This document shows, piece after piece, positions 240 to 14,433 of a stretch of 20,000 bases of DNA (its first letter is position 1; each line of letters opens with the position of its first letter). The notes beneath the pieces are model-generated. The model was not told the origin of the DNA, made no database searches, and saw only the letters and a program-made list of their open reading frames with translations. Made by a program: the position numbers and the translations under genes. Source of the DNA: Thelocarpon superellum (Eukaryota). The stretch covers positions 45,782-65,781 of the forward strand of contig JAPEUG010000051.1 of assembly GCA_026025795.1 (NCBI GenBank). The letters run 5' to 3'.

Positions 240-2461
240 ATGTCGTGGAAGCTGACAAAAAGTATGTGATGCTCCTTGATCCTCACGCTCACTTCCATGG
301 GTGATCCATCGTGCCGTGTGCTATTGGTGGTCGAGCTCGCCCAGATGTAGCGTTGCTGAACGGGCCAAAGCTGACTCCATAATAGAGCTCAAGGATACGC
401 ATCTTGCACCTCTGGCTAATACCTTCAACCGATCCTCGTCCACCTCCACTATCACTCCCGTTGACGCGTCCAAGGATAGTCTCAACAGCAGCAGTACTAG
501 CGACAATGGCATTGGTGGGTCACCTCTTTCGAATGACGGTCTGGCCGGGCCGGGTGCTGACCTCATCACAGCCGCGTCAGAGGCCAATGCGTCCCCGCCC
601 GCGGCCCCGGTGAAGCCGGGGATCCTCATCGTCACGCTCCACGAGGGCAAAGGCTTCTCGCTGCCGCCGGAGTACCAAGCCCGCCCGCCGTCATCATCGC
701 AGCCGCAGGGCTCGTTAGCGGCCGGCGGCGGCGGCGGCTTCTCCGTCTCGGGCTCGCTACGTGGCCCACCATCCATGGCGCCCAGCCACACGGGCGTATC
801 TTCCTCGCTTTCAAGTTCCACAACCCTCGGCTCCAACACTGGCACCGGCGGCATCAATGCTGTGCCCACCAATCATGGCCGCTATTCCTCCAAGTATCTC
901 CCCTACGCCCTGCTCGACTTTGACAAGCTCCAGGTATTCGTCAACGCGGTGTCGGGCTCGCCGGAGAATCCCCTCTGGGCTGGTGACAACACGGCCTACA
1001 AGTTCGATGTGTCGCGCGTGACGGAGCTATCGGTGCAGATCTATCTGCGGAACCCTAGTGCCTCGCCCGGATCGGGCCGCAACGAAGACATCTTCTTGGG
1101 CGTGTGCCGGGTGAACCCGCGATTCGAAGAGTCCAAGCCCTTCGTGGAAGACCCCAAGAGCAGCAAGAAGGATAAGGAGAAGGCGGCCGCGGCCTTTGCC
1201 CAGCAAGAGCGCACTCGCGGACAGATCGGATCGGAGTGGCTGGAGGTGTCGTATGGCACGGGACAGCTGAAGATCGGGGTCGAGTACGTGGAGAACCGAG
1301 CGCGCGCGCTGAAGATCGAGGACTTTGAGCTGCTCAAGGTCGTGGGCAAGGGCAGTTTCGGCAAGGTCATGCAGGTCATGAAGCACGACACCCACCGCAT
1401 CTACGCCCTGAAGACCATCCGTAAAGCGCACATCATCTCGCGGTCGGAAGTGGCGCACACGTTGGCGGAACGCTCGGTCCTGGCGCAGATCAACAACCCC
1501 TTCATCGTGCCCTTGAAATTCTCCTTCCAGTCCCCCGAGAAGCTCTACTTGGTCCTGGCCTTTGTCAACGGCGGCGAGCTCTTCCACCATCTTCAAAAGG
1601 AGCAGCGCTTCGACATCAACCGGGCTCGCTTCTACACGGCGGAGCTACTATGTGCCCTGGAGTGCCTGCACGGCTTCAACGTCATCTACCGCGACTTGAA
1701 GCCCGAGAACATCCTGCTCGACTACTCGGGTCACATCGCGCTGTGCGACTTTGGCCTCTGCAAGCTGGACATGAAGGACGAGGACCGGACGAACAGTGAG
1801 CTGTATGGATTCCTCTTGAAATCGATGCTGACCAATTGATAGCCTTCTGCGGCACGCCCGAGTACCTGGCCCCAGAGCTGCTCTTGGGTCAAGGCTACAC
1901 CAAGACGGTGGATTGGTGGACGTTAGGCGTGCTCTTGTACGAAATGCTTACGGGGCTTCCGCCCTTCTACGACGAGAACACGAACGAGATGTACCGCAAG
2001 ATCCTCTCGGAGCCCCTACACTTCCCCGGACCCGAAGTGGTGCCCCCGGCGGCGAAAGATCTTCTTACCCGTCTACTCGATCGGAACCCGCAGCGACGCA
2101 TGGGCTTTAACGGCGCGTCGGAGATCAAAGCGCACAACTTCTTTCATGCCATCGACTGGCGCAAGCTGCTCCAGCGCAAATACGAGCCAACCTTCAAACC
2201 CGACGTGGTATGTCTGCTGGCTGCACTCCGTGACTTGATGGTCACGCTAATCCTGACGTGTAGGCTGATGCCCTGGACACGGCCAACTTTGACCGTGAGT
2301 TCACCTCGGAGGCGCCGACCGATTCCTTCGTCGAGGGCCCCATGCTCTCACAGACGATGCAGCAGCAGTTTGCGGGCTGGTCGTACAATCGCCCCGTCGC
2401 CGGGCTGGGTGACGGTGGTGGGAGCGTCAAAGATCCCGCGTTTGGTAGCGTGAGCGGGTAG
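240..2461 (+). CDS. ypk1: AGC-family Ser/Thr kinase Ypk1/Gad8 (YpkA) ortholog; 4 exons: 240-261, 386-1795, 1843-2207, 2264-2461 (664 aa)
   Basis: Spliced N-terminus MSWKLTKKLKDTHLAPL. C2-like region PYALLDFDK...FDVSR. Kinase motifs GKGSFGKV, YRDLKPEN, DFG, and activation loop TNTFCGTPEY joined across intron 1796-1842. C-terminal hydrophobic motif FAGWSY. Introns 262-385, 1796-1842 and 2208-2263 are all GT..AG with GCTGAC/GCTAAT branch sites and keep the frame. Confidence 0.95.
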
Positions 2462-3526
2462 CTACCCGGTCAGTCCACGTGCGAGAGATAGACATGACGA
2501 AGATGACGATGCACTACACTGCGAGGCATGATGGACAGGAGCACTTCAAATGGGGTCGGAGGTGACGGTGAATGGGAATAGTTTGCAGCAGATCTCCACA
2601 CACCAATGCCGGGACGTGCCGCACTCTGGGCACTGGCGTCTACCAGCGGCGTCACCTCTCAGGTAGTAGCGAGCGAGATCAAAATACAACGTGTCGGCGT
2701 GTCGGCGTGCGTTGTACAGCTCGATCGATGTAATGCCAGATGGGAGCCACGTCCCTTGCCCTGTCTAGGTCGTTACTTGGTAGCGGATCAGTGCGACCAG
2801 AGAACAGCACAACCAACGGTCATCTGCGTGAGAAGACGACAAAGCGTCATTCGCTGCCTGCGTTCCTCAGTACGAGTATGGCCGCACACCCGTCAAACTA
2901 CAATGTGAACCAACTTCGTGTCTTTGCCGCACATTTCTGGGCTCGCCGCGCTCATCAGCATGCGAGAGGCAGGTATTTCTGCGGCTCTCTTCCCGAGTAA
3001 TCTTGGCGTGCTTACGCTCGAAAGAGCCAAGTTCCGCTGTTTTTGAATGGGAGTACCGTAGGGCAAAGGAACGGGCCTCGCACGAGAGACCGGAGGTATT
3101 GCGCGGATGCATGAGCGACGACGGGTCAACGCCACGGCGTAAATGACGCTAATGGTGGGGCTGTTGGGCGGAACGACAAGACTTGACGGGACCAAAGCGA
3201 CAGCGAAGGGAGTGGACTAGGCCTCCGAAGCTGCCGAGTCGAACCCCTCCATCACCACGTCACATGCAGTCACCGTGCGGTGCTGGCAGTGGCAGGCCAA
3301 ACAGTCCCCGTTAATCATCGCTGACGCACTTCTTTCTCAGCAACAGCTCTTCGCTCGCTCCCTCCCCGCCCGCCTCAGCTCAATTTCTCCTCTCCCCCAC
3401 TCCCTCCAGTTGAGCCCTCGACGTGCCATTGAAAGCTCGTAGCTCGCACTCGAAGCTTCATACACTTCTTGCTCCTTATCTCCACCTTCACGCCACCAGA
3501 GCCCAAAGCCACACTCGATCCTTACG

Positions 3527-5427
<1,901 letters not shown>

Positions 5428-11195: not shown

Positions 11196-11529
11196 ATGGC
11201 GGACCTCTACTTTATTCTCACCATGGTTATGGCCATCTTTACCATCCTCACCGTCGCCCTCGTTGGCGCATGGTACGGAGGGTACCTCGAACCGATCATC
11301 GTTCGCGTGACCAAGTTCATCTTCATCTACAAAGCCAAGGCCGAAGAAAAGGCGTTGGAGGCGCAGGGGAAGAAGGCTGGGGTGGATTTCGTCAAAGGTA
11401 CCTTTCCTCCGACCCCACTCTCGCATGATATCCGCGGCACGTGCTCACTGATCAACAGGGGACTTGCATGGAAACAAGCAAGCCGACGCCGTCGAAAACG
11501 AGGGCTTGGGCGCACTGAAGAAGCTCTGA
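11196..11529 (+). CDS. Small single-pass membrane protein of unknown function; exons 11196-11397 and 11459-11529 (90 aa)
   Basis: ATG in AACATGG context and a hydrophobic N-terminal helix (LYFILTMVMAIFTILTVALVGAWYGG). A 61-nt intron GTACCT...CTGAT..CAACAG gives a charged tail KAKAEEKALEAQGKKAGVDFVKGDLHGNKQADAVENEGLGALKKL*. Confidence 0.7.
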
Positions 11530-11806
11530 TAATATTGGCACGATTCAAGCCCTGATCCTGCTGCGATTTGTGGAGAAAAATGGAGCCTGCTGTACTTCTG
11601 TGCCGATGGTAGAATGTAAACTGGTGTTGCGGCTGTGCAAAAACAAACGATAGACCTACATGCCTGTGAAGTTTAGCTGCACAGTTTTTGGACAGAATAG
11701 CATTCTCTGGAGACCGGAAATTAAAGTCGATGAGGTAGAAAGATCCGCCCAATGATGCAAGTACGGATGATAAATCCGATGTTGAGGAATAAACTTGAGT
11801 TGAGTT

Positions 11807-11813
11807 TATATAA
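11807..11813 (+). promoter_or_regulatory. Putative TATA element upstream of the tRNA-Pro gene
   Basis: TATATAA lies 31-25 nt upstream of the mature tRNA 5' end (11838), the typical TFIIIB/TBP position. Confidence 0.5.
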
Positions 11814-11873
11814 TAGAATAGGCCACTTAACTCGACCGGCTCAATGGTCTAGTGGTATGATTGTCGCTTCGGG

Positions 11874-11937
11874 ATTTCATCGCCTGAGTGTTAGAAGCAC
11901 TCTTCTGCGGTTACACTTTGGTGAAGCCATAGAAAAA
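11874..11937 (+). other. Canonical-position (37/38) tRNA intron, 64 nt
   Basis: Starts one base 3' of the anticodon and lacks GT-AG ends. Contains hairpins GAGTGT/GCACTC and TTTCATC/GGTGAAG. Confidence 0.85.
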
Positions 11938-11959
11938 TGTGACAGGTCCCGGGTTCAAA

Positions 11960-12009
11960 GTAAATCTTTCATCCTAACTCCTTTGACCCATTAACTTACT
12001 GTTCGTTAG
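11960..12009 (+). other. 50-nt GT-AG (spliceosomal-type) intron inserted in the tRNA T-loop between positions 59 and 60
   Basis: GTAAAT donor, branch-like CTAAC (11974-11978) and TTAAC (11991-11995), pyrimidine-rich body, TTAG acceptor. Exact removal restores T-loop TTCAAAT. Confidence 0.75.
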
Positions 12010-12040
12010 TCCCGGTTGAGCCCCAACTCAACTTGCCTTC

Positions 12041-12046
12041 TTTTTT
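12041..12046 (+). terminator. RNA polymerase III terminator (T6) of the tRNA-Pro gene
   Basis: TTTTTT begins 18 nt after the discriminator base. Confidence 0.7.
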
Positions 12047-12333
12047 GCCCCTCTCTCGAATGAAATTTGGTTAATCTGCGGGGAGAGGGCGATCGGGAAG
12101 GTATCCGATCGGTCAAGTGACCCGCCACGATTGGCCACCATTGCTCAGCGGTCATTCTTAGGGGCCATGCTCGCCCTGGATCTCCCCACCAGCTAGCGGT
12201 AACTCCCGTCCAGCATTACGATACATGCTTCTGAAAGGCCTTGCCCTCACACCCCGACACCTCGGACGTGCCCACCGAGACAAGTATATGGGCTGCTTGA
12301 AGATGTAGCACCATCACATTCATCGAGTGGAAG

Positions 12334-14433
12334 ATGGTTCTCCAAGACTTCTTTCTCCCCAAGACGAGCGCTTCAAGTCGAAAAGCACGCCGCGGCTTGT
12401 CGTGGAGCTCCTCGTCCTTGACGCGCTCCTTTCCGGCCCGCGCCCCAGCCCAAGATGCCAGGTACATTTGGGACGAGGCGATGCTGGAGGAGGAAAAGTC
12501 GCCAGAGGAGGCGGATCTGAAAACGCTCAACGGCTCTCTCGCTCTGCTGGCCTCGATCTTCCCGGACGTGCAGCCCGAGGTCTTCCGAGAGATGCTCTCC
12601 AGCTACGGCGAGGAGAGCAGGCTGCATGTTGTCACGGAGGCGCTCCTCAAACACAAGGCCAAGTGGGTGCGAGGTCAGTGGCGAGTACCCGGGAAAGACG
12701 GTCCTGCGGGACCGACGAGATCAGCGGCGGCGTCAGCAAATGCTGGCGGGGCAATGAGCCTCGCGGTCGAGGAGCGCTTTCGCAGTGAACCCTACAAAAG
12801 AGCGGTACGCGGGGCTCTCTACCAGGAATTCCGAGATCTATCACACTCCGCCATCAACGCCGTGCTTGCCGAGCACAACTACTCCTATACCTTGAGCCGG
12901 CCGACGCTCGTCGCCCTCTCCTCCAAGTCATGGCGCTCCTCGCTCTCCTCCTTCTTCACGCGACGCAAACCATCCGTGTCCATGTCTACGGCGGTCAACC
13001 CGCTGCTCGTGTGGCGCCTGGTCGAGGGCGGGACGGACGAGTCGATCCCGATGCTACGGAGCACGGGCTCCGCCGAGCTGGACCGAGAACTGTTTGAGTC
13101 CTTGATTCGCCCCCTACAGCAGACCACCAAGGAGGCCAAGGAAGACCGAGACCACGAGATGGCGCTGCAGGCAAACGAGGCCGAGGCCGAGGCGGTCAAC
13201 GCCATGTACGAATGCGGATGCTGCTTCTCATCGACGACATTTGAACAGATGGTGGCCTGCGACCGAGGGGGGCACTGCGTTTGCTTCAGCTGTGTACGCC
13301 ACGTGGTCCAGGAAGCGCTCTTCGGGCAGGGCTGGGCAAAGAACGTGGATGGGGGTGGCAAACTCCGGTGCATTACACCCATGCCGGACGATCGACTGGA
13401 CTGCGAGGGCCGCATCCCCTCCGACTTGCTTCATCGAGCTCTAGTGGAAGAACGCGGAGGGGAAGAGGTGTGGCAGAAGCTGGAGGAACGAGTCGCCAGC
13501 GACGCATTACAAAAGAGCCAAGTCCCGCTGGTACGATGTCCGTTCTGCCCCTACGCCGAGGTGGACGACGTCCAGATCCACGCGTCGAGCGACACGTGGC
13601 GCATCAAACGAGCGGGCATGTGCTCGCTCACGACCATTCTCCTAGTCATGGTGTCGGGGGCCTTTTCCTTCTTCCTCTCCTTCTTCCTCCTCATCACCAT
13701 CCTCACGCTTCTACACCCCTCGACTCCCTCCCTCCCCGCCCAACTTTCCACGCAGCTCTCCGCCTCACTCACGCGCCTGGCCCGACGCCGACGCGGGCTG
13801 AAATTCACATGCCAATCGCCCATGTGCGCCCGGTCCTCGTGCATGTCATGCGAGAAGGAATGGCGCGACATCCACATCTGCTACGAGTCGGAACGGCTCG
13901 CGTTGCGCGCACACGTGGAACGGGCCATGTCATCAGCGGTCAAGCGGACGTGTCCAAGATGCAATCTCTCCTTCGTCAAGGCATCGGGATGCAACAAACT
14001 GACGTGCGTGTGCGGGTACCACATGTGCTACGTTTGCCGCAAGGAGATTGGAAACGAGGGCTACCGGCACTTCTGCGAGCACTTCCGGCCCAAGGGCGCC
14101 GGGGCCTGCGAAGTCTGCGACAAGTGCGACCTGTACCGCGCCGAGGACGAGGCGCGCGCGGTGCGCCAGGCGGCGGAGGACGCGGAACGCGAATGGCGCA
14201 GCAACGAGACCGGTGCAGGCGGCCGCGCGCTCGAAGATTGGCGGTGGGAACGGCGGGATGACTTTGCCGGCACGAGTGGCGGCTTGAGCGGCATCGGCAG
14301 TGGTAGTGGCGGTGGGGCAGGTGCAACGTGGCTCCGGCCGAGTACATGGCAGGGCTGGACGCATCTTCAGAAGAAAAGCGCAGCACAAGATGCGTTTGAC
14401 TGGCTGGTGGAGAATCTGGTGGAGCTCCCATGA
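12334..14433 (+). CDS. RBR (RING1-IBR-RING2) E3 ubiquitin ligase, RNF216/TRIAD3-like, with N-terminal CUE-like motif and a TM segment; intronless, 699 aa
   Basis: RING1 ECGCCFS...CDRGGHCVCFSC...LRC. IBR CPFC...FTCQSPMCARSSCMSC...HIC. RING2 CPRCNLSFVKASGCNKLTCVCGYHMCYVC with the catalytic Cys in GCNK. Tail YRHFCEHF...CEVCDKCDLY. N-terminal LLASIFPD CUE-like motif. Confidence 0.85.
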   Translation: MVLQDFFLPKTSASSRKARRGLSWSSSSLTRSFPARAPAQDARYIWDEAMLEEEKSPEEADLKTLNGSLALLASIFPDVQPEVFREMLSSYGEESRLHVVTEALLKHKAKWVRGQWRVPGKDGPAGPTRSAAASANAGGAMSLAVEERFRSEPYKRAVRGALYQEFRDLSHSAINAVLAEHNYSYTLSRPTLVALSSKSWRSSLSSFFTRRKPSVSMSTAVNPLLVWRLVEGGTDESIPMLRSTGSAELDRELFESLIRPLQQTTKEAKEDRDHEMALQANEAEAEAVNAMYECGCCFSSTTFEQMVACDRGGHCVCFSCVRHVVQEALFGQGWAKNVDGGGKLRCITPMPDDRLDCEGRIPSDLLHRALVEERGGEEVWQKLEERVASDALQKSQVPLVRCPFCPYAEVDDVQIHASSDTWRIKRAGMCSLTTILLVMVSGAFSFFLSFFLLITILTLLHPSTPSLPAQLSTQLSASLTRLARRRRGLKFTCQSPMCARSSCMSCEKEWRDIHICYESERLALRAHVERAMSSAVKRTCPRCNLSFVKASGCNKLTCVCGYHMCYVCRKEIGNEGYRHFCEHFRPKGAGACEVCDKCDLYRAEDEARAVRQAAEDAEREWRSNETGAGGRALEDWRWERRDDFAGTSGGLSGIGSGSGGGAGATWLRPSTWQGWTHLQKKSAAQDAFDWLVENLVELP

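Follow-up and report, generated by a model that had tools for sequence, protein, structure and literature searches.

Introduction

Nuclear introns fall into three classes that are kept apart by their substrates, and those of tRNAs belong to a pathway built on a protein endonuclease. A gene for tRNA-Pro(CGG) in the lichen-associated fungus Thelocarpon superellum (Ascomycota, Pezizomycotina, Thelocarpales) raises the question of whether a tRNA can also carry an intron for the spliceosome. The gene lies in a 20,000-nt stretch of a metagenome-assembled genome (GenBank GCA_026025795.1, contig JAPEUG010000051.1, positions 45,782 to 65,781 of the forward strand), called the window below; coordinates count from its first letter, and features are on the + strand unless stated otherwise. 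Between tRNA positions 59 and 60, the T-loop of this gene is interrupted by 50 nt (11960..12009) that begin with GT and end with AG. A first-pass annotation, made from the sequence alone, had read this insert as a spliceosomal intron.

What is the insert, and what has become of the gene that holds it? By its sequence, it looks like a spliceosomal GT-AG intron and resembles neither a bulge-helix-bulge (BHB) intron of the tRNA endonuclease nor random DNA, a call on which its borders, branch motifs, length, absence of structure, and the rarity of its signature all agree. We consider the insert very probably to be genuine spliceosomal-type intron sequence, located precisely between positions 59 and 60. 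That it is spliced by the spliceosome to give a functional tRNA is a more tentative proposal, one that the sequence allows us to call possible rather than probable.

Gene anatomy

In its native form, the gene is invisible to standard detection. ARAGORN finds no tRNA in the native window, and Rfam reports none at its gathering threshold, nor any over 11750-12100 when E values up to 10 are admitted. Once 11960-12009 are deleted, ARAGORN calls a tRNA-Pro(CGG) with a 64-nt intron in the anticodon loop, and only then do ARAGORN and the list of base pairs yield a cloverleaf with a 7-nt T-loop. The first-pass annotation had cautioned that tRNAscan-SE may miss genes of this kind or call them pseudogenes. 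A permissive Rfam search also gave a mir-320 match at 12034-12100 on the − strand; it scored 16.5 bits, where the gathering score is 55.5, and was rejected as spurious.

As delimited by ARAGORN after the deletion and by a check of the stem pairs, the whole gene (11838..12022) comprises three exon pieces and two intervening sequences. Exon 1 (11838..11873; tRNA positions 1-37) supplies the 5′ strand of the acceptor stem, the D arm with the A box, the 5′ strand of the anticodon stem, the anticodon CGG (11870-11872), and G37. It is followed by a canonical tRNA intron of 64 nt at site 37/38 (11874..11937), which ARAGORN reports as (37,64). Exon 2 (11938..11959; positions 38-59) holds the 3′ strand of the anticodon stem, the variable loop, the 5′ strand of the T stem (CCGGG, 11949-11953), and the first six T-loop bases (TTCAAA, 11954-11959), and with them the first eight of the 11 B-box positions. 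The candidate spliceosomal intron then occupies 11960..12009, between positions 59 and 60, with GT..AG borders and the full splice signature described below. Exon 3 (12010..12022; positions 60-72) begins with the last T-loop base, T (12010), continues into the 3′ strand of the T stem (CCCGG, 12011-12015), and closes the acceptor stem with its 3′ strand; the discriminator base, C73, follows directly at 12023. With the insert removed, all stems pair: the acceptor stem has 7/7 pairs, the T stem 5/5 (all G-C), the anticodon stem 5/5 including one G-U, and the D stem three pairs and a U-U. The earlier statement that the rest of the tRNA is intact, with a 7/7 acceptor stem, therefore holds for the stems; it made no mention of the second intron, at 37/38, and the B box is cut.

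The two intervening sequences differ in kind. The canonical 37/38 intron folds into a strong structure (−19.4 kcal/mol, z −2.80) that only two of 200 shuffled sequences equal in stability, and its 5′ end lacks a GT. Such structure suits an endonuclease-type tRNA intron, and we presume this one to be a substrate of the tRNA splicing endonuclease. The T-loop insert, at −0.7 kcal/mol and z +0.49, is unstructured, and 125 of 200 shuffles are equally stable.

Splice signals of the insert

The insert contains several elements expected of a short spliceosomal intron: GT-AG borders, a branch motif of the CTRAY type 8-40 nt from the acceptor, and a YAG as the first AG downstream of it. The donor, GTAAAT (11960..11965), matches GTAAGT at five of six positions. 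Two branch-site candidates are present, CTAAC at 11974..11978, whose A11977 precedes the last base of the intron by 32 nt, and TTAAC at 11991..11995, whose A11994 precedes it by 15 nt; the tract after TTAAC is rich in pyrimidines. The acceptor TAG (12007..12009) is the first AG after both candidates. The insert's sequence and coordinates, and the positions of these four motifs, are all as the first-pass annotation had quoted them. Its claim that the length of the insert agrees with that of local mRNA introns was also borne out, as 50 nt falls within the range of six introns (47, 46, 62, 84, 55, and 59 nt) from two deposited gene models, both of which can be threaded exactly on the window. Less secure is its comparison with intron 4 of the PGI gene (5240-5323, 84 nt), where TTAAC is present, but a role as branch site is uncertain because an AG lies between the motif and the modeled acceptor.

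How often would such a combination arise by chance? Among all 50-mers on both strands of the window (n = 39,900), 124 have the form GT..AG and seven the form GTRNRT..AG; when a YAG acceptor and a YTRAY branch motif 8-40 nt from the 3′ end are added, one remains, and it is the insert. A slightly stricter rule, applied to both strands at all lengths from 40 to 110 nt, gives 11 matches including the insert. Of the four PGI introns, just one satisfies this rule, so that the insert has cleaner signals than several genuine introns do. The search can also be run from the side of the tRNA: each of the 8,490 GT..AG segments of 40-100 nt on both strands was deleted in turn and the product rescanned with ARAGORN, and a tRNA was called once, upon removal of the 50 nt starting at 11960.

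Two further properties of the insert were recorded. Its base composition (G 0.10, T 0.40) departs from that of the six pooled mRNA introns (G 0.25), among which only PGI intron 3 (G 0.13) is similar; we count composition as evidence neither for nor against any reading. In both constrained and free folds, UCAAAG (11955-11960, the end of the exon and the first intron base) pairs with CUUUGA (11981-11986), and this modeled pairing would mask the donor site.

Insertion borders

The fold of the tRNA cannot fix the borders of the insert, as ARAGORN accepts all eight cut registers from −4 to +3. They are fixed instead by comparison with an insert-free relative. A 103-nt contig of run X3, from the same study, carries the tRNA-Pro gene of another organism. 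It differs from the window at two positions over 11838-11873 and at none over 11935-11959, with a different 28-letter stretch replacing most of the canonical intron. After the equivalent of 11959, the contig runs straight into TCCCGGCTGAGCCC, and its uninterrupted T-loop reads TTCAAAT. Among the eight registers, only register 0, the cut at GT|AG, produces this loop from the window, and shifts of −1 or +1 give others. The first-pass annotation had noted that cutting at GT/AG restores a canonical 7-nt T-loop, TTCAAAT; the same loop is present in the insert-free X3 contig. Neither a terminal repeat nor a target-site duplication is found at the borders of the insert.

The borders of the canonical intron are echoed in other data as well. 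Runs X1, X3, and X4 carry tRNA-Pro-like copies whose match to the window ends at 11873/11874, the pattern expected of a canonical intron border. The same 30-letter flank upstream of a tRNA-Pro-like gene (before 11840) occurs in X1 and X4 at low depth (3.4 in X4), which suggests a co-inhabitant organism shared by the lichen metagenomes.

These results bear on the simplest alternative, in which the insert is a random arrival, either a 50-bp repair filler or a fragment of a mobile element, and its GT..AG borders and branch motifs are coincidental. A very large scan may surface rare coincidences, and the donor, with A at +5, is imperfect. Set against this, the full signature singles out the insert among the 39,900 window 50-mers, an insert-free relative sets the same borders independently, and target-site duplication, terminal repeat, and second window copy are all absent. 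We judge a random insertion improbable. Nor does the 20-kb window give a sign of an introner or other transposon-derived intron, as it holds no second copy and the borders show no duplication.

Presence of the insert in DNA reads

Because the window comes from a metagenome-assembled genome, the insert might be an artefact of assembly or binning, absent from the DNA of the organism. DNA run X1 holds 0.93 of the sampled words of the window, and two of its contigs cover the locus, 11613-11981 at a depth of 103.9 and 11952-12600 at a depth of 136.1, both with 0 differences. Both include the exon/insert junction, and the insert/exon junction lies within the second. Run X2, with 0.07 of the words, gave no contig at the locus. 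The first-pass annotation had itself named an assembly artefact as an outcome that would overturn its reading; with both junctions covered by contigs of X1, assembler error is excluded.

What can be said for an artefact is that X1 is possibly the same data set as that behind the window and that its contigs break at 11952-11981 with a step in depth from 103.9 to 136.1. Both junctions nevertheless lie inside single contigs at a depth above 100 and without differences, and the exon/insert junction is common to two contigs, so that a chimera would need two loci with an identical junction. An artefact is, in our estimation, scarcely credible. The break itself spans a 30-mer across the exon/insert junction and may reflect an error branch of low depth or another sequence with the same junction; since the contig records are filtered, we do not read the depth step as a second haplotype or copy.

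No X1 contig joins the exons across the insert, with the proviso that contigs may drop rare variants. The sample is polymorphic nearby: at 11498-11642, X1 contains two haplotypes, at depths of 105.6 and 46.3, which differ by seven substitutions and one deletion within about 85 nt. At the tRNA locus, by comparison, X1 yields no variant contig, although the polymorphism is only about 350 nt upstream. We take the missing insert-free contig as a weak sign that the insert is fixed.

Related loci and the endonuclease alternative

A scan of metagenomes was made with a pattern for an interrupted T-loop in the same T arm, which also matches an ordinary tRNA followed by a chance TCCCGG. Among the matches listed, which represent at least 119 loci, 103 T-arm sites have an ordinary, uninterrupted T-loop and 22 do not; the latter consist of some archaeal-looking T-loop inserts and otherwise of unrelated sequence. 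In several loci (L005/L077, L017, L057, L064, L063, L071, and L075), the T arm is interrupted after TTCAAA by 40-70 nt and then resumes with TCCCGG. Their appearance is that of archaeal tRNA genes in which an intron occupies 59/60.

Such loci give some purchase to the view that the T-loop insert is a second endonuclease-type intron, recognized through a BHB-like motif at 59/60 as in Archaea, Cyanidioschyzon merolae, and nucleomorphs. They have inserts at the same place in an identical T arm, and 59/60 is among the non-canonical archaeal sites listed in a 2014 review (PMC4090602). The sequence of the insert speaks otherwise. When four cut registers and both BHB geometries were searched, neither a BHB nor a relaxed hBH motif came to light, and the central helix never reached 4/4 pairs in 32 combinations of register and offset. 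The best result, 3/4 pairs, arose solely with cuts at 11960/12010, and the ten best combinations listed, with 2-3/4 pairs, do not include the GT|AG register. The absence of structure noted above also runs counter to an endonuclease intron, as does the position-dependence described for fungal endonucleases, which relies on the mature tRNA domain that the insert disrupts (PMC4090602). We therefore assign an endonuclease-type origin a very low probability and regard a second intron of the archaeal or red-algal type as unlikely in this fungus.

Transcription signals and proposed maturation

Returning to a spliceosomal intron, the surroundings of the gene show how it could be transcribed. A TATATAA element lies at 11807..11813 (−31 to −25), the sole + strand occurrence in the 20-kb window; the 25 nt around it are 72% A+T, and the window is 58% G+C. 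In some fungi, upstream TATA boxes serve genes of RNA polymerase III (Pol III). A T6 run resembling a Pol III terminator follows the gene after 19 nt (12041..12046) and is one of two on the + strand of the window, whereas neither intron contains a run of four or more T. The A-box region is intact. The spacing between the A and B boxes, about 96 nt owing to the 64-nt canonical intron, is just over the 30-90 bp quoted as normal in a 2018 review (PMC5855946). The codon that this tRNA would read, CCG, is the commonest proline codon in the coding sequences of PGI and the RING-finger gene downstream (18 of 46).

From the anatomy of the gene, the rarity of the signature, the presence of the insert in DNA reads, and the insertion borders, all of which are read directly, we infer transcription, splicing, the order of the steps, and the origin as follows. 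The gene would be transcribed from its own Pol III signals, namely the TATA element at −31, the A box, the partly kept B box, and the T6 run. In the transcript, a "T-loop" of 57 nt would block formation of the tRNA elbow, such that RNase P, RNase Z, and the splicing endonuclease could not yet act. The spliceosome would then use GTAAAT, the CTAAC or TTAAC branch site, and TAG to release the 50 nt as a lariat, which would restore the 7-nt T-loop. The usual pathway would follow, including removal of the structured 64-nt intron by endonuclease and ligase. A working tRNA-Pro(CGG) would thus be assembled by removal of two mechanistically different introns, the spliceosomal one first, from a Pol III or a read-through RNA polymerase II (Pol II) transcript. 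We advance this route as a plausible proposal, while stopping short of calling it probable.

For the origin of the insert, reverse splicing followed by reverse transcription and recombination appears most economical, as it would fit borders that fall exactly at GT..AG and the lack of any target-site duplication. The site concerned, 59/60, is an exposed bulge of the T-loop.

Functional tRNA or recently inactivated gene

The strongest rival to a functional, spliced tRNA accepts the intron and disputes the gene. The intron would have landed by reverse splicing or transposition, and the transcript would be poorly made, or left unspliced and degraded; the locus would be a young pseudogene, with CCG codons read by other tRNA-Pro genes. 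We hold this to be a serious possibility, if a somewhat doubtful one.

Several observations count against splicing to a functional product, and a number of them favor recent inactivation directly. The B-box consensus comprises 11 positions, with C61 conserved. The insert truncates the box after position 59 and replaces the last three of those positions, including that of C61, and the truncation may weaken TFIIIC binding and with it the internal promoter. The extended donor consensus is GTRNGT, with G at +5; the insert has A at +5, and all six local mRNA introns, admittedly a small sample, have G. The host transcript would be of the Pol III type and not, as is typical for spliceosomal introns, of the Pol II type (U6 and rRNA being exceptions), and apart from U6 we know of no Pol III transcript that serves as a spliceosome substrate. 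No fungal-like GT..AG T-loop insert or orthologue was found among the at least 119 metagenome loci in the matches listed, and the 20-kb window contains no second copy of the insert, the best other match being 9 nt. The evidence concerns a single locus in a metagenome-assembled genome, and X1, possibly the sample behind the window assembly, is not an independent confirmation. Run X1 also contains other tRNA-Pro-like genes, those with matches ending at 11873/11874. Lastly, according to the 2014 review, insertions in the D and T arms of eukaryotic tRNAs are mostly taken as pseudogenes, with exceptions in nucleomorphs and C. merolae, where the BHB motif matters (PMC4090602).

Other features are hard to reconcile with decay. 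No second defect was found, be it a broken stem, a lost conserved base, or a lost flank signal; G37, C73, the TATA element, the T6 run, and the splice signals are all intact. There is no insert-free allele in a polymorphic sample, a weak point given that contigs drop rare variants. In addition, the X1 contig 11613-11981 runs unbroken through the 5′ exon, which, judging from the behavior of contigs, makes it less likely that the sample holds another gene at high depth whose 5′ exon is identical. The first-pass annotation had held that intactness argues against a decayed pseudogene. The absence of any further defect sustains that argument for decay, but intact flanks and stems would be equally expected in a gene that died recently, and recent inactivation fits the DNA almost as well as function does. 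Its further step, that the tRNA is processed by the spliceosome, is affected in the same manner: the sequence features agree with a GT-AG spliceosomal intron, and the young pseudogene accounts for the DNA nearly as well.

A different proposal retains the splicing and changes the polymerase. The tRNA gene is intergenic; 311 nt downstream of it, a gene for a 699-aa RING-finger protein, with one exon and in the same orientation, starts at 12334. The TATA element at 11807 might drive a Pol II transcript, for example one with a long 5′ leader of the RING gene, in which the insert would be a leader intron; RNase P and RNase Z might or might not release the tRNA afterwards. TATA boxes serve Pol II too, splicing is normally coupled to Pol II, and tRNAs are efficiently excised from Pol II transcripts. 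The T6 run and the complete architecture of a tRNA gene point to Pol III instead. Moreover, the gain of an intron inside an intact tRNA would still be required, so that this proposal alters the route and not the oddity. We consider it quite unlikely.

Comparison with known systems

A literature search whose coverage largely excluded subscription journals brought up no tRNA gene with a spliceosomal intron, in line with the first-pass annotation, which knew of no established case. If confirmed, the insert would be the first. Its other statement, that spliceosomal introns occur in fungal non-coding RNAs, agrees with two sources for U6, other small nuclear RNAs, and rRNA (PMC5855946, PMC8527467). 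The 2018 review lists such introns in U6, U2, U5, U1, and rRNA, and tRNA does not appear in the list (PMC5855946).

The closest parallel in host range is provided by the "ectopic" spliceosomal introns in the ribosomal DNA (rDNA) of lichen fungi, described in one article (PMC8527467, citing Bhattacharya et al. 2000). A 57-bp rDNA intron of Cladonia grayi is, according to the same article, correctly removed from RNA polymerase I (Pol I) rRNA even in Saccharomyces cerevisiae (PMC8527467). Like the T-loop insert, these introns are short, have GT-AG borders and mRNA-type signals, and reside, in lichen-associated Pezizomycotina, within a plentiful structural RNA produced by a polymerase other than Pol II; a reverse-splicing origin has been proposed for them, as we propose for the insert. 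Their host, however, is a Pol I rRNA rather than a 73-nt Pol III tRNA. Many of them are conserved across taxa and their removal has been demonstrated, whereas the insert is one locus, and its removal is a proposal.

With respect to the polymerase, the best comparison is U6. In Schizosaccharomyces pombe, the single U6 gene is transcribed by Pol III, its intron is removed by the spliceosome, and an origin by reverse splicing is discussed; the yeast U6 promoter combines A and B blocks with a TATA box, and Rhodotorula has introns in U1, U2, and U5 (all from PMC5855946). The S. pombe U6 gene shares with ours a small structured Pol III transcript, A/B-block logic, and an upstream TATA element, and it is functional despite its intron, being the sole copy. 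Two differences stand out. U6 lies within the spliceosome's active site, which explains insertion there; a tRNA does not. In addition, a B-box match is found inside the U6 intron of S. pombe, as the title of Frendewey et al. 1990 states, whereas the insert cuts the B box. Near the 3′ end of the insert, a B-box core, GTTCG, occurs at 12001-12005, with the TCC of exon 3 six bases later. It recalls the match in the S. pombe intron and may be chance, at about 4-5% per 50-mer.

Ectopic tRNA introns proper are reported from Archaea, where 59/60 is among the sites, from C. merolae, and from the nucleomorphs of cryptophytes and chlorarachniophytes, according to three articles (PMC4090602, PMC3728597, PMC9602550). 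As in the present gene, more than one intron can be present, one of them in the T arm and at the 59/60 site, and standard finders miss them. These introns are defined by a BHB and cut by the tRNA endonuclease; the insert is unstructured, without a BHB, and has GT, branch, and AG signals. Eukaryotic tRNA pseudogenes with D- or T-arm insertions (PMC4090602) are similar to the present gene in that the T arm of one tRNA copy is interrupted although the eukaryote splices its tRNAs canonically. Those cases, however, are described as short inserts in one of many synonymous genes, in contrast to the present 50 nt, which have exact splice signals and interrupt a gene that is perfect in all other respects.

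Genomic context

In addition to PGI (glucose-6-phosphate isomerase) and the RING-finger protein, genes for a protein kinase, a RanBP1-domain protein, an ECM11-domain protein, and a PAS protein lie in the window. One exon of PGI matches, at 100% identity, a 553-aa NCBI protein labeled as glucose-6-phosphate isomerase of a T. superellum metagenome-assembled genome, and the next matches, at no more than 94%, are from lichen-associated Pezizomycotina. Metagenome-assembled genomes of Thelocarpon impressellum, Sarcosagium campestre, Piccolia ochrophora, Caeruleum heppii, Sclerophora, and Chaenotheca occur among the protein matches of the window. In another lichen fungus, a 1,192-aa model (P0072) joins the protein kinase and PGI, which are neighbors at 280-5427 of the window. 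This fusion is probably a merged gene model, and it suggests conserved synteny.

Conclusions

If the tRNA is indeed spliceosome-dependent, it would break the substrate-based separation of intron classes and would mean that the spliceosome is able to act on a tightly folded 73-nt Pol III product. "Ectopic" spliceosomal introns would extend to a third polymerase class, and the gene would connect with the puzzling spread of spliceosomal introns into the rRNA genes of lichen fungi. As the insertion borders are known to the base, the gene would also provide a clean, minimal natural substrate for the study of reverse splicing as a route of intron gain. If, on the other hand, the gene is dead, it would still be a rare record of how an intron arrives in a gene for a non-coding RNA.

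A functional gene of this kind would further imply a population of tRNA genes hidden from tRNAscan-type annotation. Deleting each GT..AG segment and rescanning is a simple way to find more of them. Since the present gene is invisible to ARAGORN and Rfam and, by extension, to tRNAscan-type pipelines, the tRNA sets of lichen-fungal genomes may be under-counted.

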